Below, one piece after another: positions 3,122-33,912 of a stretch of DNA of 64,000 nt. The translations under genes were made by a program, and so were the position numbers. This DNA comes from Escherichia phage T4. Position 1 is the stretch's first letter. Each line of letters starts with the position of its first letter. Below the pieces are notes generated by a model that searched no databases, had not been told where the DNA came from, and saw only the letters and a list, made by a program, of their open reading frames with translations. The stretch lies in the sequence record OL964745.1, one strand, 5' to 3'.

Positions 3122-3165
3122 TTATCCTCGTTTGGTTTCGGGAATATTATACTCCGGTAATCATA

Positions 3166-3191
3166 AAGCTAAAGGCCCGAAGGCCTTTTAT
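3166..3191 (-). terminator. UUCG-tetraloop hairpin
   Basis: Plus aaaggcccgaaggccttttattt; minus-strand RNA AAAGGCC-UUCG-GGCCUUU followed by a U-containing tract. Confidence 0.45.
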
Positions 3192-3446
3192 TTAAAACGA
3201 ATAGTTGAATCCTTAAAGAACAGCCCAGAACATACTGTTCCTTCTACTTTCTGCCCGGTAGGTCCAATAGCACGAAATCCAGTATGCTGGAAATCATTTT
3301 CAGAGCAACCGAACCAATTATATCCAGTGATTTCAATATTAGTAAAACCACTTGAAGACAAAACTTTGGTTGCATTATCAGCATCAGTACATCCTATTAA
3401 AGACACTGCTAATACTAATGCTGCAATAGAACGATTAATATTTCAT
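3188..3446 (-). pseudogene. small lipoprotein gene with frameshift between start codon and signal peptide
   Basis: ATG AAA TAT TAA at 3446 is out of frame with the downstream signal peptide and lipobox (..SIAALVLAVSLIGC TDAD..); restoring 2 nt (TATT to TATATT) gives one ORF. Confidence 0.4.
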
Positions 3447-3454
3447 AATTACCC

Positions 3455-3625
3455 TTTAAGCAAGTCGTAAAATCCACCATTCACATGCTTAGGAGCGGAA
3501 ACTAACCGAACAGCCAGCCGATGACAATCAGGACATACATCAGTATCTCTTTCAGAAATTTTCTTGATTTTTTCGTATTCTTTTGCACAGTCTTTGGATT
3601 GACATTTATAATCATAAAGCGGCAT
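3455..3625 (-). CDS. small zinc-ribbon protein (about 56 aa)
   Basis: Hand translation MPLYDYKCQSKDCAKEYEKIKKISERDTDVCPDCHRLAVRL...; two CxxC pairs; below the ORF-track size cut-off. Confidence 0.45.
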
Positions 3626-3627
3626 AA

Positions 3628-4053
3628 TTATTCCTTAAAGTAAGCTTTCAACATCTGATATAAAGACCACGCCTGATCATTATTTTCAATAGTAACTTTC
3701 ATGACTGGGAATTCTGTGAAATCTTCTATTTGTTCTTGCTCTTTCTCTTCCTGCTCTTGCTCTTCAACCGCCTGATATGGATTTTCCACTTCATCAAAGA
3801 ACCCAGCTTCGTTAGTAGAGAGCCAGATAAAGTTTTCGTCAAGGATATCACCGCCGGCACAACGTTTGAGTACACCTATGGATGTCATAATTTTAGTAGG
3901 ACGCCCAAGATAATCAGCATCTAAAATTTTAAAAGGCTCCATACCTAAACGTCGTGCATAGATTCCGTTATCAGTATGGTCTTTAATAAAATTTTCTTGA
4001 GCTTGTTTATTTTTAAATTGATACCATTTATTAACTTCAAATTTAATAGCCAT
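3628..4053 (-). CDS. hypothetical early protein (141 aa, acidic C-terminal region)
   Basis: ORF track; tight packing with neighbours on the coding strand. Confidence 0.45.
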
Positions 4054-5430: not shown

Positions 5431-5543
5431 AATTTTCTCTTTAGTTTAAGGTAATAAAGCCTTTTAGTTCGGCATAGGATTTTATTATCCTCAGTAGCTA
5501 TGGTGTTATAGTACCACAACTAACCGAGGAAGTAAACAACTTT

Positions 5544-6227
5544 TTATCGTTTTGTTGGAAGAGATAGAGGATCGCATTCTTCCTCTGATGGAGCATCTTC
5601 AAGACCCATAGCATATCGCAAAGCATACTTCATCATCAGGATGTCTTTCGCACAGTCATGAATAGAATCATGTGCAACGAATCCATCTAAAGTTCCCTTT
5701 GGAAGAGGACACGTTGTCATATCACGAACAAGCAGAAGTGCTTCAATTCTAGTACGAATATCACGCTGATTCCAAAATTTACAAGGTTCTAACTTAAATG
5801 TATCAAGCTCATTCTCGGAAACGCCGTTAAGACGTTGAATATCGCGAATAAGATCGACTAAAATTGGAAAATCAAACGACATTCCACGGCACCAGCCTTG
5901 AGATTTCCAAGGATCGATATTATGTGCATTGATGTAATCATTAAATTTTGCAATACCGTCGATAGTGCTTACATCTTCATCGGATGGTGCAATATTTTTT
6001 CGAGCTTCAGGAGATTGATTCTTCCACCATTCGATAGTACTTTTAGTAAAAAGACGGTGTCCTTTTTGGCTTTTTAAATCAAATTTGATTTTAATGCCAC
6101 GTGAAACTAATTCATCGAATGTTTCAACTACTTCTGGATTAGGGTCAAAAGCAATTACAGCCAAATCAATAACCGCTGCTTTTTCACCACTTCCCATTGT
6201 TTCAAAATCTATAATAAAATCAAACAT
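5544..6227 (-). CDS. dexA: exonuclease A (DexA), DnaQ-like 3'-5' exonuclease
   Basis: 227-aa ORF with DEDD-type motifs (FDFETMG, HDSIHDCAKD). Confidence 0.85.
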   Translation of the reverse strand: MFDFIIDFETMGSGEKAAVIDLAVIAFDPNPEVVETFDELVSRGIKIKFDLKSQKGHRLFTKSTIEWWKNQSPEARKNIAPSDEDVSTIDGIAKFNDYINAHNIDPWKSQGWCRGMSFDFPILVDLIRDIQRLNGVSENELDTFKLEPCKFWNQRDIRTRIEALLLVRDMTTCPLPKGTLDGFVAHDSIHDCAKDILMMKYALRYAMGLEDAPSEEECDPLSLPTKR

Positions 6228-11531: not shown

Positions 11532-11805
11532 TCGTTTTACCTAAAACAATAGTAGGAGCATCGTCAAATTTATGAATTTTTAGCAAATTTGGATTTAAAT
11601 TATTCCATAAAGAGGTAATAAAATATGATAGCGCACTTTCGTCCGTAATTATAAATTTATTTCCTTTATCTATTTTCCAATCATATATTGAATCATATGA
11701 ATAGAAGGATAACGGTTTATTATTATAATATGCTTCAGCAACATCAATAGTTAGATTTAGTAAATGCTTGAATTGCCATAAATGGAGAATTTTGTACAGT
11801 TTCAA
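11506..11805 (-). CDS. hypothetical protein (99 aa); may be the 3' part of a frameshifted gene
   Basis: Overlaps the next ORF by 62 nt in another frame. Confidence 0.35.
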
Positions 11806-11971
11806 TAATTCCGATCTTTTTAAGTTTTATTTCAACATCTTCTGGAATTGGCATTGAAATAAAATCTTCTACTAGATACATATTATTGTCATATCTTTTA
11901 TCAATCATTACTGCTACAGTAATTGGAACATCCTTGACAAACGCCATACTTACTATTGATAGACATTTCAA
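11744..11971 (-). CDS. hypothetical protein (75 aa); may be the 5' part of a frameshifted gene
   Basis: ORF track; long overlap with 11506..11805. Confidence 0.35.
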
Positions 11972-11995
11972 ACAAAATTGCTTCCATAATTTTCC

Positions 11996-12229
11996 TCAAT
12001 CACAAGATGTAGATGAACAACTAGAATCACAAGAACTTCCACATGAATCACCTGCCCATACATGAACAGGAACATTAGTATCATATGAATCAGAACTAGA
12101 CTGTGTATTCTGTGTGTTAGATGATGTAGTAGGTGTTGACCAGCGCCAAGGATTTTTATAATATTCTTGGGCTTCTTCATAAGTCATAGTAACTGCTTCT
12201 ACTGTTCCATCTCCCATAAACATATTCAA
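11996..12229 (-). CDS. hypothetical Cys/Ser-rich protein (77 aa)
   Basis: C-terminal CGSSCDSSCSSTSCD. The overlapping 11968..12180 ORF is judged spurious. Confidence 0.4.
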   Translation of the reverse strand: MNMFMGDGTVEAVTMTYEEAQEYYKNPWRWSTPTTSSNTQNTQSSSDSYDTNVPVHVWAGDSCGSSCDSSCSSTSCD

Positions 12230-12334
12230 CTACAGTTAAAGGAAGGTAGTCATTTGAAATAGGAACTACACCTTCCCCAGGAGTTGTAGAGAAAAAATCC
12301 GTAAAGAAACTTTTAAACCAATTAAAGATAAACA

Positions 12335-12541
12335 TTACAAAAAGCCTCTTTTGAATTCGACTTGCTTCTCACCATAATCATATCGAATCTCTGCATTAAA
12401 TTCGACAGAACCATCTGCGTACATCATAAATGAATGCACAACAACTTCTGTAGACCATGGTTGTAGTTCATATTTCTTCATTACATGTCGTGAAATGATA
12501 ATATCTAAATCTTCATTTGGTTTAATCCAACGATTTAACAT
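12335..12541 (-). CDS. hypothetical protein (68 aa)
   Basis: ORF track. Confidence 0.4.
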   Translation of the reverse strand: MLNRWIKPNEDLDIIISRHVMKKYELQPWSTEVVVHSFMMYADGSVEFNAEIRYDYGEKQVEFKRGFL

Positions 12542-12604
12542 AGTACTCTCCTCTATAAGATAATTCTATTATACCATACTCATTTTGGAAAGTAAACCAT
12601 TTAA

Positions 12605-12633
12605 ATGAAAAAAGGACTCCCGAAGGAGTCCTT
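12605..12633 (-). terminator. rho-independent terminator after soc
   Basis: Minus RNA GGACUCC-UUCG-GGAGUCC followed by UUUUUU. Confidence 0.6.
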
Positions 12634-12639
12634 GAGTTA

Positions 12640-12882
12640 TTAACCAGTTACTTTCCACAAATCTTCATTTGCAGCAATCCATTCAGTACGTTGATTTTCT
12701 TCATATACTGTAGAATATGCTGCTTTTTCTGAAGGGAATGTCTGGTAATGAGCGCCAGAAATTTTGTGAACGTCAGAATAAAGAGGGAAAGCTACAGAAA
12801 TTTCCTTTCCTTCAATTTTCTTATTTCCATCTAATTTCTGCTCAAATGTTTTGATATTAACATAACCGCGAGTACTAGCCAT
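12640..12882 (-). CDS. soc: small outer capsid protein Soc
   Basis: 80-aa ORF MASTRGYVNIKTFEQKLDGNKKIEG... matches T4 Soc as recalled. Confidence 0.95.
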   Translation of the reverse strand: MASTRGYVNIKTFEQKLDGNKKIEGKEISVAFPLYSDVHKISGAHYQTFPSEKAAYSTVYEENQRTEWIAANEDLWKVTG

Positions 12883-12914
12883 GTAATTCTCCTTTATTTA
12901 AATTACATGATTAT

Positions 12915-13505
12915 TTATACATCTTCTTTTCTGAATAAGTAAATTAAATTCTTAAGAGCCGAACTTGTTACATCATATTTTCCTTTAAGCGCCTTTACAA
13001 CCGGGCCTGTTGCTGGTTTACCTAAAGAAACCCATAACTCGTGTATTTCGCTTTTAAGTGGTTCATGCCAATGCGGTGCTTTTCTTTGCGCCCTTGAAGT
13101 TCCTTCTGAAATCTTTTTATTTCCGCCATTCGAATAAAACTTTTTCATTACTTCAGATTGCCGAGCTTTTCTTTCTGCCCTATTTTGGGCTATACGTTGT
13201 GAATTCTTCATCCGAGTTTTTGTTTCAGGATTGTTTAATCTAAGTTTATGTTCTAATCGTTGTTGCTCAGTCCATTTTCTTCCTTCTCCACCCTGACCAC
13301 CAGGAGAAATATTAATGCAAGTATCTGGGTGTTTACGTTTTAATGCAGATTAGCTCACGTTCAACTTCATATGATTTTTCTCTAGAACCATGGCATTTTG
13401 ACCATCGTATTTTATAATTATCCATACTTACGATATATGTTCCATAGTATTTTACCTGAACCCGGATATTTATCATTATATGGATTTACAATAAATGATT
13501 CATGT
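12915..13505 (-). pseudogene. segF: segF-like homing endonuclease remnant in at least three frames
   Basis: Fragments ..YPGSGKILWNIYRKYG*, MDNYKIRWSKCHGSREKSYEVERELICIKT*, and a 144-codon C-terminal frame with ISPGGQGGEGRKWTEQQRLEHK; resemble SegA/SegB. No intact GIY-YIG N-terminus. Confidence 0.45.
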
Positions 13506-13514
13506 TTCCCAGCG

Positions 13515-13540
13515 TACCAAAAGACGCCTTTCGGCGTCCT
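13515..13540 (-). terminator. hairpin terminator after gene 56
   Basis: Minus RNA GACGCC-GAAA-GGCGUC followed by UUUUGG. Confidence 0.55.
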
Positions 13541-13572
13541 AACTTTTACTATATGTTCTATAAAATTTTTGT

Positions 13573-14103
13573 TTAATATCCATTATCTTGACGTTCAAAA
13601 TTATGTTTGTTCTTCAGATAATAAAGTTTAAAGATTTCTTCCGCATTCATTCCAAGGCCAACAAACATATTTAATACGAAATGAAATATATCCACAAGCT
13701 CAAATTTAATTTCGAGCTGGTCTTCGGGGGACATTTCATCAATGCGTTTTTCTTGCGCTTCAATATAACGTGCTTTCCATTTTTTCCATACAGCAGAAGC
13801 TTCTTTTTCACCACGTGACATTTCACCAAGAGAAGTCAGAAGTTCGCGGAATTCATCATCAATACAGTCTTTTTGTTCACGCATCCAAGAAACAACATCA
13901 CCGGCAGTTTCTAATTTATCTGGATGATAGCAGTATTCGCGGACATTAGCCAAACGAATCTGTAAAGACCGCTGCATATCAAGCATAACTTGCAGCGGAT
14001 CTTTTTCATCACCGAGAATATCCCAGTATTCATTTTGAGCTTTATCAACACCTTCGATCAAATGAGCACATTCATTAAAGTGAGCCATTAGTTTTCCTTT
14101 CAA
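13573..14103 (-). CDS. 56: dCTP/dUTP pyrophosphatase gp56 (MazG-like)
   Basis: 176-aa all-alpha ORF at the T4 gene 56 position. Confidence 0.8.
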   Translation of the reverse strand: MKGKLMAHFNECAHLIEGVDKAQNEYWDILGDEKDPLQVMLDMQRSLQIRLANVREYCYHPDKLETAGDVVSWMREQKDCIDDEFRELLTSLGEMSRGEKEASAVWKKWKARYIEAQEKRIDEMSPEDQLEIKFELVDIFHFVLNMFVGLGMNAEEIFKLYYLKNKHNFERQDNGY

Positions 14104-14123
14104 TTCATTAATAAGTTAAATAA

Positions 14124-14920
<797 letters not shown>

Positions 14921-15220
14921 ATTCTCTCATTTATTGCAGCAAAAATGAATTATACAATTCTTCATCATATGTATTTGATAGTAATACTAACACGTTTTGC
15001 GATAAATATTAATTTAAAGGAGGATATGGTACAAAAATTAATGGCACTTGTTAATGCCATAAAAGGTAATAAGAAACGTATAGCTTTTACTTTCTGCTAT
15101 GGTAGGAATTTTACTCTGGAACTTTATTTTATCACCTGTTGCAATTGCACATGGTGTTAATATTCCAGTAGTTACTCTTGATACATTCGTAGATTTAGCA
15201 TTTGCTTTAGTTGGGTTAAT

Positions 15221-17697: not shown

Positions 17698-17839
17698 TGA
17701 AAGCTTTAACTAATGCTTTATTAACTTCAGCATATTGAGTAGTAGCCCATTGAACGTCATCTTTCATCATTGTGATTTCTTTAGTAAACATGCTTTCATT
17801 CTTAAACCACCCCATAAAAACTACCTTTACCAATTCCAT
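17657..17839 (-). CDS. dmd: Dmd, discriminator of mRNA degradation
   Basis: 60-aa ORF immediately downstream of gene 41; size and position as in T4. Confidence 0.75.
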   Translation of the reverse strand: MELVKVVFMGWFKNESMFTKEITMMKDDVQWATTQYAEVNKALVKAFIDDKKVCEVDCRG

Positions 17840-17898: not shown

Positions 17899-19325
17899 TA
17901 AAATTTTAATTCATTCGCCAAAGCATCTAACTGAGCTCGAGTCGATTCATTTCTTTGATAGCGATTCTGCTCAGCCTGAATCTGTTGTGAACCTGCTACT
18001 TCGTTCACTTCAGTTGGAGTAGAATCTTGTTCAATTTCTACCCATTTTTGATTTCCTTTTTGAACACCCATCAAAAACTTATTCCACTTATTCTTATCAC
18101 CATATCGTGATTTGATTTGCTTAATGAGTTGTTGTTCAGCAGCTGCTAGCTCCTCGGTTTCAATGACCGCAAGCATAAAATCGGCTGTTGCTGGAAGACC
18201 GGCAGATTCTGCAATATCGCTCATGTTAACATCGGAAGAGTCCCAAGCTTGTTTACCAACCTGTGCTGCAGTCCAAAGAACAGTTTCGGTTTCAACAGCC
18301 AGAGCACGTAATTCCTCTGCAATAGCTTTAACAGTTGTGTAACTATTTTCTGAATAAACTCTAATGCGGCAAGATTTACAAATACCTAGATAGTCGACAA
18401 TAATGATTGTTGGAACAAAATTCTTCTTGAGCTTCAATTCGTTTAAAAGTGATCGAAATGTATTAGCGTCTGCTCCACCAGTAGGATACTGTTTAACGAT
18501 TAAACGACCAAGAGTAGATTTCTCACGCCATTTTTCCATTTTTCCTTTATACTCAGCGTAAGAAATATGCCCATCATCAATGTCATCAAGAGAAACATCA
18601 AGCATATTAGCGTCAATACGTTTAGCACAGACTTCTTCTGCCATTTCCATGGAAATGTAAAGAACATTATGTCCGAGCTGTAAATAATCTGCCGCTAATG
18701 AACACAATCCTAATGATTTACCAACGTTAACGCCAGCCATTAAAACGTTCAGTGTTCCAGTTTCAGCTCCGCCTTTCGTAATTTTGTTCAGAATTCTGAG
18801 TTTAAATGGAACCTTACGAGCTTTATTCATATAAGATAGCCAACGTGCTTCGTAGTCATCCATCCAATCATGACCAACGTAACTATCAAATGAAATTGAT
18901 AATGCCTGGCGCATGATGTCAGGAATAGCACCAACATCCGGCATTTTCTTATTTCGTTTTTCCGGAGGAAGCTCAGCATTAGTTTGAATTTCGATTATTT
19001 TAGACGTAGCATTAAACATCGCCCTTTGCTGAACATATTTTTCTGTTTCTTTTACTAACCAGCTGTGGTCTTCCGGAGAATCAGCCAGTTTTGAAATAAG
19101 TGTTTTTACACCAGAATATTCTGTTTCAGTAAATGAACTATTTTCTAATGCAACATTTAACGCATTAATAGATGGAACGCTATGGTACTCATTAACATGA
19201 GATTTAATTAATTTGAATGTATTTTTAGCTGGACCACTTTCAAAATATTCTGAATCCATATATGGCCAAACTTTTGAAAAATAAGCTTGATCAAATATGA
19301 GATGAGAAAGAATAATTTCTACCAC
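17898..19325 (-). CDS. 41: replicative DNA helicase gp41 (DnaB-like)
   Basis: 475-aa ORF with Walker A GVNVGKS and RecA-like fold motifs. Confidence 0.95.
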   Translation of the reverse strand: MVEIILSHLIFDQAYFSKVWPYMDSEYFESGPAKNTFKLIKSHVNEYHSVPSINALNVALENSSFTETEYSGVKTLISKLADSPEDHSWLVKETEKYVQQRAMFNATSKIIEIQTNAELPPEKRNKKMPDVGAIPDIMRQALSISFDSYVGHDWMDDYEARWLSYMNKARKVPFKLRILNKITKGGAETGTLNVLMAGVNVGKSLGLCSLAADYLQLGHNVLYISMEMAEEVCAKRIDANMLDVSLDDIDDGHISYAEYKGKMEKWREKSTLGRLIVKQYPTGGADANTFRSLLNELKLKKNFVPTIIIVDYLGICKSCRIRVYSENSYTTVKAIAEELRALAVETETVLWTAAQVGKQAWDSSDVNMSDIAESAGLPATADFMLAVIETEELAAAEQQLIKQIKSRYGDKNKWNKFLMGVQKGNQKWVEIEQDSTPTEVNEVAGSQQIQAEQNRYQRNESTRAQLDALANELKF

Positions 19326-19334
19326 ACTTACTCC

Positions 19335-19697
19335 TTAAAAGAATTTAAATTTTTTCTTTGACCTTTTATTAAATGCATCTTGCAGTTGCATTGTAATACA
19401 TTTTTCTACATGAGGAGCTAACTCAGCTTTTCTTTCTTGGTCAAGAACAGCAAAGTCCATTACAACCTTTCCATCAACCCAATCCAGTTTAGTTACATAC
19501 ACTATATGCGTAGAACCATCTTCTAGTTTAATGACAATCTCCTGGATAACATTTTCCATAGCAGATTTAATTATCTTAAGAGACTCATTAAAAAGACGTT
19601 CTTTTCTTTCTTCTTCCCCCTCCGAAGAGGGGGATTCATCGATAATTTCTAGATCTAAATCTAAATCATCTTTATTCATTAAATTCTTCCATATCAC
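19335..19697 (-). CDS. 40: gp40-like protein (120 aa)
   Basis: ORF between uvsX and 41, as in T4. Confidence 0.55.
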   Translation of the reverse strand: MIWKNLMNKDDLDLDLEIIDESPSSEGEEERKERLFNESLKIIKSAMENVIQEIVIKLEDGSTHIVYVTKLDWVDGKVVMDFAVLDQERKAELAPHVEKCITMQLQDAFNKRSKKKFKFF

Positions 19698-20847
19698 TTA
19701 GCTGTTCGAGGTCAGTTTCTAAATCAGCAGCTGATTTACTTTTACTTTCTGGAGATTTAAATTTTTCAACCTTTGAGTTAATCAATTCATCAACTTCAGC
19801 TTCAACAATTTCATTACTATCAATAGCACCTAACTGATAAGCACGTTTAATAGCATCTCGGAATGGTTGATGCTTAAATAAAGGACCCCAGAATGTAGTG
19901 CAGTTGGTATCTTTTGCACGCCAAGATTTTTCTTCGCGAATCATCTCGCCAGTTTCTTCGTCAAGAAATTCACGAGCATACCAGCCATTTTTAGGTTTTA
20001 CCACGAATCCTAATTCTAGAGCCATATCTAACAATCCAGAATAAGGATCGATACCACCGTCAAATTTAACATCAATAAAGAATTTACTTTTTTCTTTAAC
20101 GGTACGAGATTTTTCTACATTTAGAACAAATTGATACCCCTGAAGATCAGAACCATCTTTAATCTGGCGTTTACCGATAATGAATACGGTATCAGCCGAA
20201 TACATCGGTCCAGTACCACCTCCCATAACTGTTTTACTAAACATTTCTTGTGTTTCGTATGTATGGTTAATAGCAATACATGGAATATTTTTAGTACTAA
20301 AATAGGGAGTTACGATACGAAATAAGCTTTTCATTGTTTTAGCTCTAGTCATATCACTAACAACTTTTTCATTTAAAGCATCTTCAGTTTCTTTCTTAGA
20401 AGCTAAGTTACCAAGTGAATCGATAAAAACGACTACCTTTTCGCCGCGTTCAATTGCATCCAATTGATTAACCATGTCAATACGTAATTGCTCAAGTGAT
20501 TGAACCGGAGTATGAATTACTCGTTCTGGATCGACTCCCATAGACCGCAAATAAGCAGGAGTAATACCAAATTCACTATCATAAAACAAACATACTGCAT
20601 CAGGATATTGACGCATGTAAGATGACACCATTGTTAATCCAAAGTTTGATTTAAATGATTTTGATGGACCTGCCAAAATTAACAGACCAGATTGCATACC
20701 ACCAGTAATTTCACCAGAAAGTGCAATATTCATCATAGGAATTTTTGTTCGAACTACATCTTTTTCATTAAAGAATTTAGATGCTGTTAATTCTGCAGTC
20801 AATTTAGAAGTAGAAGCTTTAATCAAACGAGATTTTAAATCAGACAT
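19672..20847 (-). CDS. uvsX: UvsX recombinase (RecA/Rad51 family)
   Basis: 391-aa ORF with RecA-like ATPase core. Confidence 0.95.
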   Translation of the reverse strand: MSDLKSRLIKASTSKLTAELTASKFFNEKDVVRTKIPMMNIALSGEITGGMQSGLLILAGPSKSFKSNFGLTMVSSYMRQYPDAVCLFYDSEFGITPAYLRSMGVDPERVIHTPVQSLEQLRIDMVNQLDAIERGEKVVVFIDSLGNLASKKETEDALNEKVVSDMTRAKTMKSLFRIVTPYFSTKNIPCIAINHTYETQEMFSKTVMGGGTGPMYSADTVFIIGKRQIKDGSDLQGYQFVLNVEKSRTVKEKSKFFIDVKFDGGIDPYSGLLDMALELGFVVKPKNGWYAREFLDEETGEMIREEKSWRAKDTNCTTFWGPLFKHQPFRDAIKRAYQLGAIDSNEIVEAEVDELINSKVEKFKSPESKSKSAADLETDLEQLSDMEEFNE

Positions 20848-20855
20848 ATAATACC

Positions 20856-21533
20856 TTATAGTAGTGTTCTTGTTCCACGAAATACTTCGAGCATTCTTGC
20901 ATAAGATTTATTTGGAAATCCAGCTTCAATTGCTAATTTTTTAAGCTTAATAGCACCGGGTTTTCCAGAGTTTTCCCATATTTCTTTAATCTTTTCAATG
21001 TTATCCCACATTATTGGGTCACGTTTATGTGATGGTTTATTTCTATTATAACCATATGGATTATTAAGCAAAGCTTCTTTTCGTTTTGCTTTAGTTTCTT
21101 CTGACTGCTTTTTGCCTAGCTGGGCTTTCCGGCAAACATCACTAAATCCAAGATGTTTTGGTTTTCCTTTTTGAGCTTTTGAAATTTTTTCTTTGGTTTC
21201 TGATGAAACTCTATAACCAATTCTTCTACCACCCTCTCCACCAATTTTTAAATTATAAGTCATAGGATCATTTACCACATCTATTGTTACTAATTCTCTT
21301 TCAGCATCACGGGCTGATTTAAAATCTTTATAAAACCCAAGAATGCTTAAATTAAAATTTTTCTTACCATACTTTTTCTTGGCTTGTGCTAATAAAGTTC
21401 CTGATCCCATATAACCATCATTTAAATCATCGGTTGAATGAGTTCCATAGTAAATTTTATTATTAACTAAATTAGTTATAACATAAGTATAATTATATTT
21501 CTTTTCTTTATGTCTTTTCATGTCATTAATCAA
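20856..21533 (-). CDS. segA: GIY-YIG homing endonuclease SegA
   Basis: 225-aa ORF; GIY-YIG-type YTYVITNLVNNKIYYG plus NUMOD-like HSEETKxK repeats; between uvsX and beta-gt. Confidence 0.8.
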   Translation of the reverse strand: MINDMKRHKEKKYNYTYVITNLVNNKIYYGTHSTDDLNDGYMGSGTLLAQAKKKYGKKNFNLSILGFYKDFKSARDAERELVTIDVVNDPMTYNLKIGGEGGRRIGYRVSSETKEKISKAQKGKPKHLGFSDVCRKAQLGKKQSEETKAKRKEALLNNPYGYNRNKPSHKRDPIMWDNIEKIKEIWENSGKPGAIKLKKLAIEAGFPNKSYARMLEVFRGTRTLL

Positions 21534-21685
21534 CTGCTATTCGATGAACTTCTCTCTTTTCTAATCAATATAACAAAAGAAGTCCCAAAAAGCAAACAGA
21601 CCTAAACCGATAATAAGCAATAAAGGTCCTAACATTTATTCCACCGGTTAAAGATAAATAACTTTCTAATAATAGTTCATAATTT

Positions 21686-22741
21686 TTATAAATCAATAGC
21701 TTTTTTGAACGCATCTTGCCATTCGGCTTTCTTTGCACGGGTTTTATTTAAAATATCATGTTGAATAGAAAGCATCTCTTTACGCAAAACATCACTGTGT
21801 TTTAACTCATTGACTCTATCAATGAGTTCAGCACGATTATTTACATAAAAACGAGCATCATTAATAATTCGATGTTTGGTATCAAATTCTTCGTCAATTA
21901 GCATCACTGCATCAGATGCCATTGTTTCCCAGACGCGTAAGGTAATAAAGTTGTCATTATAATTCTTGTCACCAATAATTAATGCAGCAATAGCTTGACT
22001 ATTCTTTTCAGATACCATGTTCATAGGAATTTTTCCAGTGAACACCGGAGCTTTGGTCCAAGGATATTTAGGATTTTTAAACTGTTTTTCTCGTGCATTG
22101 CCAAAAAACTCAATATTTAAACCGGTGTCAAATAAGAATTCTACCATCTTGGATTCGCGTTGACCGGACCGAAATGAACCGCCATAAATAACATCCAAAG
22201 TTTTCTTGGTAGGCTTAGATAATTGAAAATCGTTCATATGAATTTTATATTGTTCAATAGGAAAATATTCAAATTCAATAACATTATCAACTTTCTTATG
22301 CGCAGCCTTAGCAATGTCTAAATTTATACCTTGGGAAATCACTTTAATTGGTGATTTAATTAATAGCTCTTCTTCAGTGTACAAATATGCCCATGGTCTA
22401 TTTTTAACATTTGGCCAAGACTGCGAAAACGGCAAACGTATATCTGTAAATAAATAATAAATTTTACTTTTGTATTTTGCCATAAATTTTTGCGCAGATA
22501 AAATTGCTAAATTAGGTTTACCGCCAAAAAAGTTAATAGAAGAATTAACAACTATCAAACGGTCATAATCATTAACATCTACTTCATCAAAAGATTTAGT
22601 GTAAACACCATTTTTAAGAGAAATAATGTCGACATTAAGACCCATTTCAGAAATAACTTTAAAAAGATAAATAGTTTCAGAAGATGGAACAGTTTTAAAA
22701 TTAATAACATTATTACCCATATTAATTATAGCAATTTTCAT
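21686..22741 (-). CDS. bgt: DNA beta-glucosyltransferase
   Basis: 351-aa ORF beginning MKIAIINMGNNVINFKT, consistent with T4 beta-gt. Confidence 0.9.
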   Translation of the reverse strand: MKIAIINMGNNVINFKTVPSSETIYLFKVISEMGLNVDIISLKNGVYTKSFDEVDVNDYDRLIVVNSSINFFGGKPNLAILSAQKFMAKYKSKIYYLFTDIRLPFSQSWPNVKNRPWAYLYTEEELLIKSPIKVISQGINLDIAKAAHKKVDNVIEFEYFPIEQYKIHMNDFQLSKPTKKTLDVIYGGSFRSGQRESKMVEFLFDTGLNIEFFGNAREKQFKNPKYPWTKAPVFTGKIPMNMVSEKNSQAIAALIIGDKNYNDNFITLRVWETMASDAVMLIDEEFDTKHRIINDARFYVNNRAELIDRVNELKHSDVLRKEMLSIQHDILNKTRAKKAEWQDAFKKAIDL

Positions 22742-22764
22742 ATTATTCCTTTTATGTTAAACGA

Positions 22765-23505
22765 TTAAGCGTATTTTCCTACATAATCTTTTTTCGAAAT
22801 ATGTGTTTCGCCAGTTTTCCACCAATGATCAACCAAATAAAAATGACGAGAATACACATGTAGGCTTCCAACATTCCATATAATGGAACCTGCTTTATAC
22901 TGGCGAGTTGAATCACCTGCATTCAAATCAGATACTAATTTATCTAATACGTATTTTTGCCATGCATAATCATTACGGAATCCGAAGACCACGTCATTTG
23001 AGCGCATGTTAACAACCGCATTGATTTTCTTGTCACGAATCAGGTATTGTACTGTATTCGTGCACATGAAATCTGACATACCATCTTTATTATAGTCAAA
23101 CTGCATAGATGGACGAGTATAAATCATGATACCACGTCGAGAATCAGGATTTTGACCAAGTTCAGCTAAACACATGTCATACTGAGCATAGTTATCTTCT
23201 GACCAGATAGCCCAACCATAATTCGAGTTAATTTCACCTTTAGAAGATGCTACTTGTTGCCAAATCTTCGGTGTTTCACCCGGAATATCTTTAACGAACA
23301 AGCTTTTAGATTTATACCATTCAAGTTCACGCTGAATGTATTCATCATTAAGAGCGCCAAAAATAAACGGTTCATCTGCTACAAATGATGCGCCAATAAT
23401 TTCAATAGTTTTAACACCTGTTTTATCAACTACGAAATCTTTTTCTTTTAATGCAAGCCCCAAATGAAGACGGATTTCTTCAACTGTCATAGAGTCACTA
23501 ATCAT
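22765..23505 (-). CDS. 42: dCMP hydroxymethylase gp42
   Basis: 246-aa thymidylate-synthase-fold ORF. Confidence 0.92.
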   Translation of the reverse strand: MISDSMTVEEIRLHLGLALKEKDFVVDKTGVKTIEIIGASFVADEPFIFGALNDEYIQRELEWYKSKSLFVKDIPGETPKIWQQVASSKGEINSNYGWAIWSEDNYAQYDMCLAELGQNPDSRRGIMIYTRPSMQFDYNKDGMSDFMCTNTVQYLIRDKKINAVVNMRSNDVVFGFRNDYAWQKYVLDKLVSDLNAGDSTRQYKAGSIIWNVGSLHVYSRHFYLVDHWWKTGETHISKKDYVGKYA

Positions 23506-23658
23506 TTAAACCTCAATTGATACATTCATATTTAACTTGTAACAGTAATAAACTCCAACCTAAAATAATAGTTGGAATCATAAGAGGAACCGTTACACTA
23601 TAGTATATACTTATTATAATCATCAAGATTAAAAGCAATGCTGCTATAATTTTGCTTT

Positions 23659-23910
23659 TCATTCCTTCTCTCTGATGATAATTACCTGATTTGGCTGCGC
23701 AGACTTTTTAGTTTCACCTGCAATTGACCAAATAAATGTAATAAACCAACCAATAATTGACCAGTTAAACAGTAAAGATGCGAAAAAGATTCCTACTGTC
23801 GATTTTGACCCACGCATCAAGGCGATAAACCATGGAAGCATGTATATAATAATAGCCAACACGCCTGAAACTAAAACCATAAAAATTGAACCTGCTACTA
23901 AAGTTTCCAT
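23659..23910 (-). CDS. imm: Imm immunity (superinfection exclusion) membrane protein
   Basis: 83-aa ORF with two hydrophobic helices. Confidence 0.85.
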   Translation of the reverse strand: METLVAGSIFMVLVSGVLAIIIYMLPWFIALMRGSKSTVGIFFASLLFNWSIIGWFITFIWSIAGETKKSAQPNQVIIIREKE

Positions 23911-23917
23911 GTTTTCC

Positions 23918-24310
23918 TCACTTAGTCAAATTTTTTACACATGAATTATAAGAATTCACTACATACTCCATCGGAGCGTTTTTACCTGTACGCCACTGGT
24001 AATTATTAGCCCAATTTGCCCAAAGCTCAGCGCAGTAGTTTTCAATTTTTTCTTCGCGTGTAATTACATCTGAATTACGATATGCTTGAGCAGATTCATC
24101 TGGACGAATAGCTTCGTCAAAATTCGCCTGCATTTGTTCTACTGTCTGTTTTGGAGCTTCTTTATAACACTTGACATTAGGATTATAAAATTTGCTTGAA
24201 CAGTTTACAATTTTTCCTACATCAGACTGATTTACTACCGGTCCTTGAGCTACACAACCAGCAAGACCTAATGCAATAACCAAAATAGCGATTTTCATTT
24301 CATTCTCCAA
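23918..24310 (-). CDS. lipoprotein (130 aa), imm.1-like
   Basis: Signal peptide with lipobox LAGC. Confidence 0.5.
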   Translation of the reverse strand: MENEMKIAILVIALGLAGCVAQGPVVNQSDVGKIVNCSSKFYNPNVKCYKEAPKQTVEQMQANFDEAIRPDESAQAYRNSDVITREEKIENYCAELWANWANNYQWRTGKNAPMEYVVNSYNSCVKNLTK

Positions 24311-24385
24311 ATCCGTATCAGTAGTTGATAGTTGTATAGTACCATGGAAGAACAGTCTTGTAAACAGTTTTGTGAAAAAATTTTT
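24305..24385 (-). repeat. conserved early promoter plus 5' leader element
   Basis: About 80-bp element also at 49601..49675, 60773..60862, 4347..4440, 48166..48225, 63647..63715; minus-strand core GTTTAC...GGTACTATACAACTATCAACTA...GGAG. Confidence 0.55.
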
Positions 24386-24447
24386 AGGGAATCCAAAGGG
24401 TCCAGAATCATCTCTTTTTCATAAGTATAGATTTATATTACTTGTAT

Positions 24448-24470
24448 GAAAAAGGGACCTGGAGGTCCCT
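24448..24470 (-). terminator. hairpin terminator after gene 43
   Basis: Minus RNA GGGACC-UCCA-GGUCCC followed by UUUUU. Confidence 0.55.
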
Positions 24471-24482
24471 AGATTTATTCTA

Positions 24483-27179
24483 TCAGCCAAACAGGAAGTC
24501 TAACGAAGCTTTTTCTTCATAGTCCATGCCAGCCGATTCACACATACCCGCAAGCGGTTTAACAAACGATTTTTGGAACAAAGTTGAGTGGTCAATCCAA
24601 GATAGCACATCAGAACGAATTTCTTTTGGAAGTTCTGTACCCGATGGCCAAGCAATGCACTTGTCACCAAATGGATTTCCTTCACGTAATGGAAGAACCA
24701 TTACTTTATTTCCATCCAAAATTGGAGCTACACCTAAACCGCTAACAGCTCGACGATAAGTTAGCACACCACGAATATGGAACGGGCATTTAAATCCTGG
24801 CCAACCTTTATCATCATATTTCGCTATATCGTTCGCAGTTTTTACTTCAGCAATAACTTTATAGTCAAGTTGACGATATTCTTTCTCGAAGTTCTTGTAG
24901 TATTCTTGGACAGACTCTTCACCTTCCTGAAGAATACGACGAATACTTTCTTCGAGAGCTTCTTGCACTGCTTTTGGTGTTGAACTCTGCTGAGTTTCCA
25001 TACCCATGATTTTTAGATGCGGTTCAGCAAATCGCTTATCTTCCATATCATAAACGTTCAGAGCATAACGCTTTTTCGCTTTCCAAAATCCACCAACGCC
25101 CTTTGAACCAAGCGGAGGGCAAGAAATAGCTTCACGGTCCATATGCATCAGATGCTCGCGGTTATTCATATAATCACATAACTCACGATATGCAACATCA
25201 ATCATAGGTTCCATCTTTTTCTTACCGAACTGATTCATGAATTCAACCAAATCGTTCTGCTCTTTGAATCGGTCAAGACCAACTTTTTCAATAACTTTAT
25301 CTACGCAAACATATACCGAATCAGTATCACCTGCTGCAATGAAATCTTCATCATTAGTTCCGCATACTTTATTCAGATATTCATTAATTTTACGAGCAAT
25401 CCACTGAATACCGACTTGGCCGAAAATTGTGATAGCAGTAGCATTTCGCAAATCATAGTAACGGAAATGAATATTACCAAGAGCACCATAAAGACTGTTA
25501 ATGAGAATTTTACGGTTCAGCTGATTTGTATTAGCAAGTGTAGCTGCTTTTTCACATTCTTCAATCAGACTATTGAGAACAGATTCGGTGTAATTCGATA
25601 GTTCATTTAAGAAATCATCACTGAACTTAACATATCGTTCAACTTCTGGTTTAGTTGAACAAGACCCTGCGCCTTTCATAATAATCTTTTTAATAGCTTC
25701 GGCATTCATTTCTTCAGCGAACATTTTCTTTTTCCAGTCTTTACGCTGGAAAAATACTTTAGCGATTTCCTTTGGAATGATACCTTCTTGATGTTTATCA
25801 TACATCCATCCATTCGGAGAACAAGAATATTCATCACTCGGTTTAGGAGCTGTTCCTGCGATATATTCATGAATTGGATGAACTTTAAACTGACCACGAA
25901 TAGTTTCAGGACTAATGTTAACCTGGCGAATAATGCTCGGATACAGAGACGTCAAGTCAAAACTCATAATGTATCGACGTGCAATTGGTTTAGGTTCAAA
26001 CACAAATGCACCCGGAAAACTCTGTTTAACGTGCGAACCTTGTTGAGGAATAACCTTATGTTCACCTTTCAATGAGTTAAAAATAATAGCATCCCAAGTT
26101 TTAATAGGACTCATTACACCAGAAAAAGGCATTTTAGCGTAATAAGACATACTTAAAACTAGATCGATAAACCCACGAATTTTATCGATTGCTTGAACTG
26201 ATTCTACGTCAATGATGTTATAACTAATGTATCGTTGATGATTAGTCTCACGAAGTTTATTAATAGGACCGTCGTATGGTAATTTACCTTTTTTGGTTTC
26301 ATGTTGAGCAACTGATTCCAAAGAGAATGACGGCAAATTAGTAAAAGCGAATTTCTTGTACAAATCTAAATAATCAAGAATAGATACGCCATCAATAGAA
26401 TAAATTTCTTTGCTACCGTACATATTTTGAATTAGTTTAGATTTTACCCGACCGATTGGAGAGAAACGTTTCATACTACGTTCACCCAGAATCATTTTAA
26501 CACGATTCATGATATACGGAACGTCAAACCCCTCAATATTCCAACCAGTAAAAATAGCAGGTCGTTTCTGTTCCCAAAGATTGATATATTCCATGAGCAT
26601 ATCACGCTCATTATCGAATGGCATATAAATTACTCGGTCAAGAATTTCTTGAGGAACTTCATCACCACCTTCACAGTCAAGCTTAGCAGCTAACTTTGCA
26701 TCCCATTTTGATACTGAACCGTACATTGAATTCAAAAGGTCGAAAACATAAAAACGATCGTCAATTGAATCGTAATGAGTGATAGCATCAATTTCATATT
26801 CTGCTTTCATTGGGTCAGGAAATTTATCACCAGTAACCTCAATGTCACAGTTAGCTACACGAACAAATTTTCGGTCATAAACAATTTCTGAACCATATGT
26901 ATCACTTATATAAGCGAGTTTAAAATCGTTCATACCGAGAGCTTCGAGACCGATGTCTTCCATTCGCTTCATCCAATCTCGAGCATCTTTCATTGATGGA
27001 AATTTTTGAGGAGCGCAGTTTTTACCATAGATGTCTTTGTATTTTGACTCTTCCTTACAATGCCTAAACATAGTTGGAAGATATTCTACTTCACGGGTAC
27101 GTTCCTTTCCATTTTCATCAATATAACGTTCAACAATGTTATTTCCGACTGTTTCAATAGAGATATAAAATTCTTTCAT
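24483..27179 (-). CDS. 43: DNA polymerase gp43 (family B)
   Basis: 898-aa ORF with exonuclease and polymerase motifs (YGGF..., DTDS). Confidence 0.97.
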   Translation of the reverse strand: MKEFYISIETVGNNIVERYIDENGKERTREVEYLPTMFRHCKEESKYKDIYGKNCAPQKFPSMKDARDWMKRMEDIGLEALGMNDFKLAYISDTYGSEIVYDRKFVRVANCDIEVTGDKFPDPMKAEYEIDAITHYDSIDDRFYVFDLLNSMYGSVSKWDAKLAAKLDCEGGDEVPQEILDRVIYMPFDNERDMLMEYINLWEQKRPAIFTGWNIEGFDVPYIMNRVKMILGERSMKRFSPIGRVKSKLIQNMYGSKEIYSIDGVSILDYLDLYKKFAFTNLPSFSLESVAQHETKKGKLPYDGPINKLRETNHQRYISYNIIDVESVQAIDKIRGFIDLVLSMSYYAKMPFSGVMSPIKTWDAIIFNSLKGEHKVIPQQGSHVKQSFPGAFVFEPKPIARRYIMSFDLTSLYPSIIRQVNISPETIRGQFKVHPIHEYIAGTAPKPSDEYSCSPNGWMYDKHQEGIIPKEIAKVFFQRKDWKKKMFAEEMNAEAIKKIIMKGAGSCSTKPEVERYVKFSDDFLNELSNYTESVLNSLIEECEKAATLANTNQLNRKILINSLYGALGNIHFRYYDLRNATAITIFGQVGIQWIARKINEYLNKVCGTNDEDFIAAGDTDSVYVCVDKVIEKVGLDRFKEQNDLVEFMNQFGKKKMEPMIDVAYRELCDYMNNREHLMHMDREAISCPPLGSKGVGGFWKAKKRYALNVYDMEDKRFAEPHLKIMGMETQQSSTPKAVQEALEESIRRILQEGEESVQEYYKNFEKEYRQLDYKVIAEVKTANDIAKYDDKGWPGFKCPFHIRGVLTYRRAVSGLGVAPILDGNKVMVLPLREGNPFGDKCIAWPSGTELPKEIRSDVLSWIDHSTLFQKSFVKPLAGMCESAGMDYEEKASLDFLFG

Positions 27180-27231
27180 AGATATTCCTTAGTTTATAGC
27201 CCGAGTTATTAGGCTCTTGATATATTATACT

Positions 27232-27256
27232 CCAAATAAGGGGCCGAAGCCCCTTG
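27232..27256 (-). terminator. UUCG hairpin after regA
   Basis: Minus RNA GGGGC-UUCG-GCCCC. Confidence 0.5.
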
Positions 27257-27257
27257 C

Positions 27258-27626
27258 TTAATTACCAATCGTATATTTAGGAACGAGCTTCCATTCATGT
27301 TTTTGTTTAAAAGAAATAACTCGGAAGTTATTAGTTAAATCTTTCATAAAAGTTCTTTGACCAGGAACGATTTCAATTAGTCCCCAATCTTCTAATAGCC
27401 ATGCAATCGAATCACGACGAACTTCATCTTCTTCTGTCATTTCAACTTGACGACCATCCATACGAAGCATTTCTTTAAAATGAACGATATAGTATAGTCC
27501 TTTTTTCTGAAGAATATGACAGGACTGATATAGAACTTTATCTTTATTATTAGCAATTCCCATACGAGTCAAAGTTTCTTTTACTTTCAGAAAATCTTCA
27601 GGTTTTTTAAGAGTAATTTCAATCAT
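27258..27626 (-). CDS. regA: RegA translational repressor
   Basis: 122-aa ORF between gene 43 and gene 62. Confidence 0.9.
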   Translation of the reverse strand: MIEITLKKPEDFLKVKETLTRMGIANNKDKVLYQSCHILQKKGLYYIVHFKEMLRMDGRQVEMTEEDEVRRDSIAWLLEDWGLIEIVPGQRTFMKDLTNNFRVISFKQKHEWKLVPKYTIGN

Positions 27627-27627
27627 T

Positions 27628-28191
27628 TTACCATTCCAATGCTAGTTTTTTGAGTTGTTTCTGTTCTTTTACGTTCTTAGTCACTTCTTTCAAAAAATCA
27701 TCCGTGACTAAACCTTTTAGTTCTTTTAATACTAAAGGAAGTTTTCCATTTTTAGTAAGAATTGATTTATAGTTAATTGCATCATTTGTATTAACTTGAT
27801 ACCGCTTAGCAAGTAACTTAATAATCAATACTTCGGTGGAATCTTCAACCAGTTTTGCCCATTTACCATATCTTTTACCACGAGGAACTGCAGCCATTAG
27901 ATAATTAAAATGAGCTTCATCACTTAAGCCTGATCCAATTAAATTCATAGCATATACAGCTGGCATACACTCTGGAAATTGTGATAATGCATTTTCAACC
28001 ATGAATTTTGAATAATCTTTTTGAGCAATAGAGCATTTAGTTTTATTATTAATAGCTCCAATTATTTCAAAAAATTCATTTTCTGCTTTTTCTTTAAAAG
28101 AATCAGCAGCGGATTGGACAGCTGTCCAATCTTTTGAATACCAAGCAACTTGATGCTCGTTTAATTGAATATCATCTTTAAATAAGCTCAT
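27628..28191 (-). CDS. 62: clamp loader small subunit gp62
   Basis: 187-aa ORF downstream of gene 44. Confidence 0.9.
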
Positions 28192-28192
28192 A

Positions 28193-29167
28193 TCACTTCC
28201 ACTGCATTTCGCATGCTAATTGAATGAAAAGATAAGCTAAATGCAATTCAGTATTAGCTGCAATACCATGATACTGATTATTTTCGCCGACAATTTCGTA
28301 CATACGAATAATACTTTGTGGAGTTACACGTGAATAGATTTCTTCGGCAAGTTTACCCACGAACCACGAATAATCAGCCGCATATTTTGGTGCTAAAGCT
28401 CTGAGTTGTTTAACATCTTTATTTTTGAGAGACTCAAGAACATCATCAATAGCACCACGATCGTTAGTAACCAGTGATAAAATACCAGCATCCAAAACAC
28501 CTTTAGACGAATAACTATCGAGCTCGCCAATAGTTTTACGAAAATCAGGAAAATTCTTTTTAACCAAAGCTGCTACAACTTTCATATCAGCTATAGCAAT
28601 TCCTTCATGCTTGCAGATTTCAGTCAATCGACGAATCATCTGCTTCATCATTTCAATTTTATCTTCATCAGTTGGTTGACCGAATGTAATAACTCGGCAG
28701 CGTGACTGAAGCGGTTTAATAATACCATCAATATTATTAGCAGTAATAATAATACTACAGTTTGAACTATAAGCTTCCATAAAGGAACGAAGATGTCGCT
28801 GAGACTCTGCTAACCCTGAACGGTCAAATTCATCAATAACGATTACTTTTTGACGACCATCAAATGAAGCGGCGCTGGCAAAATTAGTCAAAGGACCACG
28901 AACGAAATCAATTTTACAATCTGACCCATTCACAAACATCATATCAGCATTTACATCATGACATAATGCTTTTGCTACAGTTGTTTTACCTGTTCCTGGA
29001 GAAGGAGAATGAAGAATAATATGTGGAATCTTACCTTTACTTGTAATAGATTTAAAGGTTTCTTTATCAAAGGCGGGAAGAATACATTCATCGATAGTAG
29101 ATGGACGATATTTCTGTTCAAGAATGTGTTCTTTTTCATTTACAGTAATCATAATTTCCTCATTCAA
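28193..29167 (-). CDS. 44: clamp loader ATPase gp44 (AAA+)
   Basis: Walker [11 protein letters not shown], Walker B VIVIDEFD; real start probably the internal MITVNEKEH. Confidence 0.92.
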
Positions 29168-29179
29168 GTTTTAGTGTAA

Positions 29180-29202
29180 ATTATAAAGGGCCGAAGCCCT
29201 CT
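29180..29202 (-). terminator. UUCG hairpin between 45 and 44
   Basis: Minus RNA GGGC-UUCG-GCCC. Confidence 0.45.
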
Positions 29203-29203
29203 A

Positions 29204-29890
29204 TTAAAAATCGTGGGTAGAATCAGCTTCAAGAGCTACCACATAATTCGCGTGTTCACCTTCAAATTTAGCAGCACCTTGTTTACCTTTTGCCCAAAGC
29301 AGAAGTTTATAATTTCCTGGTTGCATTTTCATATTTGCCATATTGATAATGAAATTAAATGTATTTTCACCATCATAATCACCAAGAGTCAAAGAATATT
29401 TAACACGGGTCAGAGCAGAATCTTCTACTTTATTAAAACCGTTAATTACGATTTTACCTTCTTTTACCGTGATAGCAATTGTATCAATTTGCAGACCACG
29501 AGATACACGCAACAGCTGTTGAAGGTCTTCAGCTTTAATTTCAGTAACAGCAGATGCTACCGGGAATGGAATTGGTTTATTAGGAGCAACTACTGTACTC
29601 GGATCGGCTGCTGGCCAAAAAATTGTTGAGCGGGCATCAGCAATTTTAATATTTCCATCTTCTGACTGGGAAATTTCTGCATCATCATTAACTAAAGACA
29701 GAATACCGAGAAAACCGTTCAAATCGTAAATTGCTACATCAAAATCAATAACGTCAGAAATATTTGCTTCCGCATAAGTTGTACCATTAACTGCGCGAGT
29801 CATAATAAATTGACCGGATTTAAGCATAATACCAGAGTTAATAGTAGCGAAATTTTTAAGCAGAGCAGTAGTATCTTTAGACAGTTTCAT
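29204..29890 (-). CDS. 45: sliding clamp gp45
   Basis: 228-aa ORF at the head of the 45-44-62 cluster. Confidence 0.95.
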   Translation of the reverse strand: MKLSKDTTALLKNFATINSGIMLKSGQFIMTRAVNGTTYAEANISDVIDFDVAIYDLNGFLGILSLVNDDAEISQSEDGNIKIADARSTIFWPAADPSTVVAPNKPIPFPVASAVTEIKAEDLQQLLRVSRGLQIDTIAITVKEGKIVINGFNKVEDSALTRVKYSLTLGDYDGENTFNFIINMANMKMQPGNYKLLLWAKGKQGAAKFEGEHANYVVALEADSTHDF

Positions 29891-29945
29891 GTAATTTCCT
29901 TCAATTCAAATGAGATTTAATTTTATAACTAATTTAATAAAGCAA

Positions 29946-30335
29946 TTAACGATTAAAATCAGCCGCAATTGTTTCCGCAACAATTTGAGCAGCAACAATT
30001 AGACGTTCATCTGCATTACCGCAATAATCATCTTCAAGGCGTTCACCACATGAAGTCATAATAAATTTAGCACCGGCGTTTAGGGATTCTGTAGTATGTT
30101 TGCGCATTAGTTCAATCCATTTATTACTTACTTCACGATCGATAGCTTCATAATACGCATGACGAGCAGGTGCAGATTTAATTTTGTTCTGAATAACTTC
30201 CATTGCGTTATCAGAAAGAGACAAAACCCATGCTCGACGAATTTTATTTTGGTTTTGTGGATTTGATTCAGAACGCACGTGTTTTGGCTGAATATCTTTT
30301 ACATCAACAGTATAATTCACAGTAATTTTAGTCAT
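29946..30335 (-). CDS. rpbA: RNA polymerase-binding protein RpbA
   Basis: 129-aa ORF between 45 and 46. Confidence 0.75.
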
Positions 30336-30344
30336 AATACACCT

Positions 30345-30533
30345 TTAGTCATAATAATCAGTAACAGTCCAAGCTTCATTTCTATTGGACATTATTTTTG
30401 TATATTCTGCTTTAAATGCATTCCTAAGCATAGATTCAGTAACTATATGCTCTTCATTAGAAAAATTATTTCTCAGAATATATCGTTTTATTTCAGGAAT
30501 AGTTAATAGATGCTGTCCAGTTGAATATTCCAT
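30345..30533 (-). CDS. hypothetical protein (62 aa)
   Basis: ORF track. Confidence 0.4.
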   Translation of the reverse strand: MEYSTGQHLLTIPEIKRYILRNNFSNEEHIVTESMLRNAFKAEYTKIMSNRNEAWTVTDYYD

Positions 30534-30588
30534 GTTTTTCCTCCATAGAGATTATACTCTAATAAATTAAAGCATAATCTCTTATAAA

Positions 30589-33734: not shown

Positions 33735-33889
33735 ATATCAAGAACCGTCATTGAAATGCAAAATAAAATTATTGAAATAAATCCATCTGGAGTGCTAAAG
33801 AACCCAATCCAACATGCTCTAGTGAATAGATAAAATGCAAGAAAAAGTATCACATATCCAAGAAATATCATTATATCAAACTCCGTATA

Positions 33890-33912
33890 AAGCTAAAGGG
33901 CCGAAGCCCTTT
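33890..33912 (-). terminator. UUCG hairpin after alpha-gt
   Basis: Minus RNA GGGC-UUCG-GCCC followed by a U-containing tract. Confidence 0.45.

Follow-up and report, generated by a model that had tools for sequence, protein, structure and literature searches.

Background

Some small lipoproteins encoded by phages alter the cell envelope, among them T5 Llp and phi80/T1 Cor. The product of bacteriophage T4 gene 39.1 (gp39.1) resembles them in its small size, its lipobox signal peptide, its early-region location and its apparent dispensability in the laboratory, and its mature domain would likewise be disulfide-bonded, although gp39.1 shares no sequence or fold similarity with these proteins. 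An envelope-modifying or exclusion role for gp39.1, drawn from this analogy, is speculation.

The copy of gene 39.1 considered here lies in a window of 64,000 nucleotides (the whole stretch of T4 DNA that was analysed, from record OL964745.1). It belongs to the lineage produced by CiPGr, an experiment in which the phage went through as many as about 600 passages on E. coli MG1655 equipped with SpCas9, lambda Red and a plasmid library (Yuan et al., NAR 2022; PMC9825161). Each non-essential gene was represented in this library by as many as eight spacers, supplied together with 50-bp homology arms, and clone T4_583L, obtained after about 583 passages on it, was viable with a burst size of 109 compared with 120 for the wild type (PMC9825161). 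In the portions of that article considered here, one- or two-base deletions leading to premature stops and lying outside the design were reported in CiPGr-evolved T4, some of them were suggested by the authors to be escape mutations, and such small deletions were noted only for T4 (PMC9825161). The event in 39.1 belongs to the same lineage and is of the same kind, and it too was not designed; 39.1 itself is not mentioned in those portions of the text, where escape was invoked for some events (PMC9825161), whereas no association with NGG protospacers was found here, either for 39.1 or for the class as a whole. Deletions in non-essential genes of T4 under Cas9 attack have also been described by Wu et al. 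(mBio 2021; PMC8262927), but these span tens to hundreds of base pairs and remove both protospacer and PAM, whereas 39.1 has lost 2 nt from an (AT)3 repeat that lies in no protospacer. The interval from gene 39 to gene 56 is a known non-essential deletion region of T4 (PMC8262927).

Gene 39.1 in wild-type T4

In wild-type T4, 39.1 is an open reading frame of 261 nt that encodes an 86-aa lipoprotein precursor, represented in GenBank by ADJ39724.1 of T4T (86 aa), which begins with MKYINRSIAALVLAVSLIGC followed by TDADN and whose full translation is MKYINRSIAALVLAVSLIGCTDADNATKVLSSSGFTNIEITGYNWFGCSENDFQHTGFRAIGPTGQKVEGTVCSGLFFKDSTIRFK. Restored to the wild-type sequence, gp39.1 matched phrog_902 among the PHROG families over residues 1-86 (E = 1.4e-36), and a search of 5.8 billion proteins returned 52 homologues at E <= 4e-14, mainly from T4-like phages of enterobacteria. 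Several of these are named "lipoprotein" in their sources, including UniRef and the annotation of Klebsiella phage KP185. Alignment of the homologues revealed a short charged N-terminus, a hydrophobic stretch and a nearly invariant L-x-G-C-T-D motif; Cys20 is conserved in at least 90% of the sequences, the N-terminal MKYINR is conserved too, and two further cysteines, at positions 48 and 73, are nearly invariant in the family.

When examined for a positive n-region, a hydrophobic h-region and a lipobox of the form [LVI][ASTVI][GAS]C within about the first 25 residues, the wild-type protein displays all three elements (MKYINR, SIAALVLAVS and LIGC, respectively), while in the window their codons are present and are not translated from the ATG. 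By established bacterial lipoprotein rules, gp39.1 is thus predicted to be a signal peptidase II substrate. An aspartate directly after the lipidated cysteine (position +2) is the inner-membrane retention signal in bacterial lipoproteins, and because gp39.1 has threonine rather than aspartate at this position, it is probably sorted to the outer membrane. Pfam yielded only a sub-threshold match for gp39.1 and NCBIfam none. The AlphaFold2 model (pLDDT 78.5) consists of one helix packed on a four-stranded sheet; a fold search of the PDB with this model gave nothing below E = 1 (best E = 1.6), and its BFVD matches were exclusively uncharacterised phage lipoproteins from T4-like and jumbo phages. 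A literature search for "gp39.1" gave no T4 result.

The gene occupies a conserved position between 39.2 and gene 39 in the early-region cluster goF-39.2-39.1-39, its surroundings comprising gene 39 (topoisomerase subunit), 39.2 (zinc ribbon), goF, cef and motB according to the open reading frames of the window and the annotations of T4T, NC_000866 and MZ375356.1. Gene 39.2 (minus strand, 3449..3625; open reading frames and annotations) encodes an intact 58-aa zinc-ribbon protein of FmdB-like type. Its stop codon (TAA, 3451-3449) precedes the ATG of 39.1 by 2 nt, an arrangement that suggests translational coupling. A Shine-Dalgarno-like AAAGGG (3452..3457, minus strand) is placed 5 nt upstream of the ATG with the spacer TAATT, its GGG being also the last sense codon of 39.2. 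Directly after the 39.1 stop codon, the GC-rich hairpin AAGGCC-UUCG-GGCCUU is found on the same strand (3172..3187). It is of the C(UUCG)G type, very stable hairpins of which are known from intercistronic regions of T4. Yersinia phages fPS-2 and fPS-90 have an annotated terminator at the corresponding site; in a terminator scan of the window the UUCG hairpin after 39.1 was not called, its T-run being interrupted.

The choice of reference matters for this locus. Comparison of NC_000866.4 (1671-1780) with the window (3380-3480) revealed that the old reference reads TTAATTAATAGTACT where all resequenced T4 genomes read TTAATAGGATGTACT, so that the lipobox cysteine codon is missing from NC_000866 just downstream of the 39.1 start, and the annotation of that record gives 39.1 only 198 nt and 39.2 only 138 nt. 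These differences are probably errors carried over from older sequencing, and they obscure the lipoprotein character of gp39.1. Because NC_000866 appears to be wrong near the lipobox, a resequenced T4 such as T4T is the right comparison.

The lesion in the window

On the minus strand, positions 3446-3435 of the window read ATG AAA TAT TAA, which translates from the ATG as MKY followed by a stop. In this residual mini-ORF (3435..3446) the ATG is the authentic 39.1 start, and the TAA has been made by a frameshift. The frame that follows the TGA at 3445-3443 continues as N I N R, then S I A A L V L A V S, L I G C and T D A D N, and stays open to the TAA at 3190-3188. The body of the gene (3188..3442, minus strand), comprising the rest of the signal peptide, the lipobox and a 66-aa mature domain with the two conserved cysteines, is therefore out of frame with its own ATG. 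The lipobox L-I-G-C (TTA ATA GGA TGT) is encoded at 3389..3400 on this strand, where the cysteine codon at 3391-3389 is the predicted lipidation site and is followed by threonine at +2. According to the listing of open reading frames, the sole start codon in the shifted frame is a GTG at 3406, opening a 72-aa remnant (MSLIGCTDADN..., 3188..3406, minus strand), which corresponds to QZB89654.1 in MZ375356.1 and has neither n- nor h-region nor a visible Shine-Dalgarno sequence. An in-frame ATT (3437..3439, minus strand) overlaps the new TAA as AUUAA by direct reading and would be a candidate start.

Alignment to T4T (HM137666.1) and to NC_000866 showed that the window lacks exactly 2 nt, ATGAAATATATTAAT having become ATGAAATATTAAT. 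In a longer alignment, with T4T and NC_000866 compared, the wild type reads ATGAAATATATTAATCGT, and both the window and MZ375356.1 read ATGAAATATTAATCGT. One AT unit of an (AT)3 tract has been lost (ATATAT to ATAT, T4T 5637-5642), which is the loss of one tandem unit; the deletion junction falls at 3438..3441 on the minus strand of the window, and which unit within the repeat was lost is ambiguous. An earlier note, made from the letters of the window alone, had described the ATG AAA TAT TAA at 3446 followed by an out-of-frame lipoprotein signal peptide and lipobox, a description that proves accurate to the base. It had also proposed that TATATT in place of TATT would keep the frame and had named comparison with the T4 reference as a check; wild-type T4 does carry TATATT and an intact 86-aa lipoprotein precursor, and the 2 nt are indeed missing from the window relative to both T4T and NC_000866.

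The window and wild-type T4 thus have 39.1 at the same locus between 39.2 and gene 39, identical except for the 2-nt deletion, which shifts the frame after codon 3. In the window copy the frame does not run unbroken from the start codon across the signal peptide; this copy is a disrupted allele of a phrog_902 family member.

The short allele among T4 records

A megablast of 3150-3650 found 550 T4-type phage records, a single one of which was 100% identical, namely MZ375356.1 ("Mutant Escherichia phage T4 clone T4_583L", 151,790 bp), and all other T4 records aligned over 503 nt compared with 501 nt for the short allele. Among the 131 phage records matching window positions 3405-3475 (71 nt), the allele that is 2 nt shorter occurs in a single one, again MZ375356.1. 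In the sibling clone T4_3t3 (OL964735.1), from the same study and pipeline, 39.1 is intact (261 nt, 3188..3448). Since T4_3t3 is intact and the short allele is confined to MZ375356.1, this comparison of sequences places the origin of the deletion within the passaging experiment. The window and MZ375356.1 are not identical: 45 differences from wild type are common to both, each has private ones in addition, and the window has fewer large deletions. On this sequence evidence, the window is a sibling sequence of the T4_583L lineage.

The same distribution bears on the idea that the shift is natural, either as programmed recoding, by frameshifting or by a bypass like that of T4 gene 60, or as a T4 pseudogene. 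Translational bypassing is annotated in gene 60, which lies nearby. However, the sequence is in frame in all wild-type T4 and T4-like records and the shift appears only in the engineered lineage, which makes such an origin vanishingly improbable.

Small deletions across the window

Comparison of the window with T4T positions 2200-73849 revealed 66 small deletions, two single-G insertions and seven substitutions. The deletions are predominantly of 2 nt (47), with 13 of 3 nt, three of 4 nt and three of 1 nt; 60 of the 66 removed only A/T, and 42 of the 66 removed a tandemly repeated unit. Their positions in the window include 4412, 4916, 6356, 8474, 11747-15091, 34830-35974 and 43685-46365, and also 50827-53583, 57234-57773 and 61593-63283. 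They are clustered, occupying 23 one-kilobase bins relative to 41.9 expected, with a maximum of 10 per bin. The essential replication and recombination block (T4T 17925-37500, 19.6 kb, genes 61 to 47) contains no deletion, compared with 19.6 expected from matched sequence contexts. Counted by gene, the heavily affected ones include mobB with 10 deletions; the others listed are 8 in nrdC.4, 4 each in nudE and tk.4, 3 each in dam, segF, segB, rI.1 and nrdC.1, and 1 in 39.1. The loss of an AT unit in segB, to which the earlier note had likened the 39.1 lesion, was recovered as cccATATATcc to ATAT at T4T 71805 (window position about 61965), where ATATAT has become ATAT in an event of the same kind as that in 39.1.

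Small deletions that differ between the window and MZ375356.1 and yet lie no more than 10 nt apart occur at 12 places (for example at T4T 7116/7119, 14624/14625, 48600/48605, 50233-50262, 60912/60918 and 61361/61365), a pattern that suggests either mutational hot spots or selection acting on these sites independently in the two siblings.

At window position 15024 (T4T 17718-17725), 4 nt (ATAT) are missing in front of the plus-strand gene dam.1, from the spacer that separates its AAGGAGG Shine-Dalgarno sequence from its ATG, so that the spacer is shortened and the coding sequence spared. The two single-G insertions (GGGG to GGGGG relative to T4T) are at window positions 47356 and 59434; the one at T4T 53070 is also present in MZ375356.1, and the other lies outside the compared part of that record. 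These insertions may be peculiarities of the T4T strain and need not be mutations. The substitution T>C at window position 21719 (T4T 24419) was considered as a stop-codon mutation of the beta-glucosyltransferase gene, with TGA in T4T, TGG in the window and 11 additional codons, and this reading was rejected. The length of beta-glucosyltransferase is one that we take to be 351 aa, and we take the TGA at T4T 24419 to be a nonsense polymorphism specific to T4T and not a change in the window.

Sequencing, assembly and the large deletions

A deletion within a short AT repeat could be produced by sequencing, assembly or reconstruction, leaving 39.1 intact in the phage itself. The genomes of this lineage were assembled with SOAPdenovo (PMC9825161), and the window carries three large deletions that look computational. 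These are 2045-2046 bp each (T4T 42789-44833, 55541-57586 and 62777-64822; window junctions at about 40057, 49827/49828 and 54996/54997) and have no junction homology, while their left ends coincide with MZ375356.1 deletions of 3311, 2678 and 2588 bp, which have 10-20-nt junction homology. The equal sizes of the window deletions suggest a computational limit or a reference-guided reconstruction in the source sequence of the window. Two further deletions, both of nearly a whole gene and both common to MZ375356.1, are those of motB.2 (457 bp, window 5479-5482) and nrdC.3 (905 bp, window 44154/44155), which look like designed "cassette-gene" edits of the CiPGr library.

Several lines of evidence argue against an artefact at 39.1. 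The data combined Illumina HiSeq sequencing, de novo assembly and breseq read mapping, and, in the portions of the article considered here, the authors reported seeing such deletions in the mappings (PMC9825161). The short allele is known from two sequences, deposited or derived, that come from one laboratory: it is found in the window as well as in MZ375356.1, two sequences with many differences elsewhere, and it is absent from T4_3t3, processed through the same pipeline. Furthermore, the deletion class to which it belongs avoids the essential genes (none relative to 19.6 expected), a bias that technical error could not produce. An intact 39.1 concealed by such an artefact is therefore very improbable. 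The earlier note had named resequencing as a check; because the deletion belongs to a lineage-wide class, recurs in a second independent record and does not occur in the sibling clone T4_3t3, it is very unlikely to be a local slip of the kind that resequencing would correct.

Origin of the small deletions

The lineage was held under the pressure of a Cas9 library with up to eight spacers per non-essential gene, and an escape origin of some one- or two-base deletions was proposed by its authors in the portions of the article considered here (PMC9825161). The 2-nt deletion could accordingly have been selected for destroying the Cas9 protospacer or PAM of a spacer directed against 39.1 or 39.2, and two features of the wider class point in this direction: the most heavily affected genes carry about 8-10 deletions (mobB and nrdC.4), and the 12 places at which siblings differ within 10 nt suggest site-specific recurrence. 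In a scan of T4T, however, no NGG protospacer with its PAM overlapped positions 5637-5642 on either strand. Across the class, 42 of the 66 deletions overlap an NGG protospacer compared with 45.2 expected from matched sequence contexts, and 25 of the 66 overlap seed plus PAM compared with 28.8 expected, with no enrichment and no preferred position relative to the PAM. The published escapes of T4 from Cas9 involve either base substitutions within the protospacer or PAM, or larger minihomology deletions through which the target is lost (including PMC8262927). The large deletions of MZ375356.1, with their 10-20-nt junction homologies, match the latter mechanism, whereas the 2-nt events do not. Taken together, selection of the 39.1 deletion as a CRISPR escape is improbable.

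Three other candidate causes were tried and rejected. Synthesis errors carried in from the 50-bp homology arms do not account for the class in general, with 27 of the 66 deletions lying within 50 nt of a gene boundary and 27.2 expected. Designed or selected immediate stops were considered in view of a weak enrichment of deletions with a stop within one codon (16 relative to 10.4 expected, P about 0.03); among the 66 deletions, those creating a stop within three codons were not enriched, and in-frame and intergenic deletions are also present. A mutator allele was sought within the window, where genes 43, 44, 45, 62, 41, 61, uvsX, 46 and 47 carry no substitutions.

With no protospacer at 39.1 and no enrichment in the class, the event is therefore treated as a slippage-type deletion in a dispensable gene. 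The AT unit would have been lost by replication or repair slippage in the short tandem repeat, and the deletion would be neutral, nearly neutral or hitchhiking, as 39.1 appears dispensable in the laboratory. Inactivation of gene 39.1 by a slippage-type 2-bp deletion in a dispensable gene of the CiPGr-passaged lineage is, in our assessment, very probably the correct account.

The usual spontaneous frameshift spectrum of T4 is dominated by gains and losses of one base in homopolymers. Because the spectrum found here differs from it, "simple slippage" may be incomplete as an explanation. A tentative reading, to which we accord a limited chance of being right, is that 39.1 is one instance of a distinct signature of 2-nt, A/T-only deletions in T4 under Cas9 and lambda Red library pressure, the traits of which are a density of up to 10 per kb in particular non-essential genes, recurrence at the same spots in sibling clones and positions away from NGG protospacers, PAMs and homology arms. 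Such a signature could reflect local break-associated error-prone repair or slippage, distinct from the known substitution and minihomology routes of escape.

Expression of the disrupted allele

Ribosomes arriving from 39.2 or binding at AAAGGG would start at the authentic AUG and halt after Met-Lys-Tyr, so that from the authentic 39.1 start neither the signal peptide with its lipobox nor the mature domain would be translated any longer. The allele would then be null or nearly so. Such an allele would be tolerated because the 39-56 region is non-essential and T4_583L is viable with a near-normal burst.

Refutation of a broken gene, according to the earlier note, would come from an alternative in-frame start used in vivo, and two candidates exist. 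The AUU at 3439-3437, reached by re-initiation after MKY, is in frame and overlaps the new stop, and a product beginning MNRSIAALVLAVSLIGC would keep the charged n-region, the h-region and the lipobox. In E. coli, AUU initiates translation very poorly; at this site it stands 12 nt from the Shine-Dalgarno sequence and faces competition from a perfect AUG located 7 nt upstream. The second candidate, the GTG at 3406, opens the remnant that is annotated as a hypothetical protein in the GenBank record of T4_583L. Its product (MSLIGC...) would start five residues before the cysteine, with neither signal peptide nor Shine-Dalgarno sequence, and would be neither exported nor lipidated. Neither start is used by any homologue, all of which have M-K/N before the h-region in the alignment. 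Continued expression of 39.1 through an alternative start is thus unlikely; the AUU is the only conceivable route to an exportable product, and judged from its context more than trace expression by that route is unlikely.

Implications

The lesion in 39.1 is ordinary in kind, and the small deletions of this lineage are already known from publication. For annotation, positions 3188-3446 are best labelled as T4 39.1 in disrupted form, carried by an engineered phage with a reduced genome, rather than as recoding or as a 72-aa "hypothetical protein". That the lineage is viable agrees with a dispensable role of gp39.1 when the phage grows on E. coli K-12 in rich medium. Beyond this single gene, the signature of 2-nt A/T deletions would matter for the understanding of T4 mutation under nuclease pressure and for the genome quality of "minimal phage" chassis.
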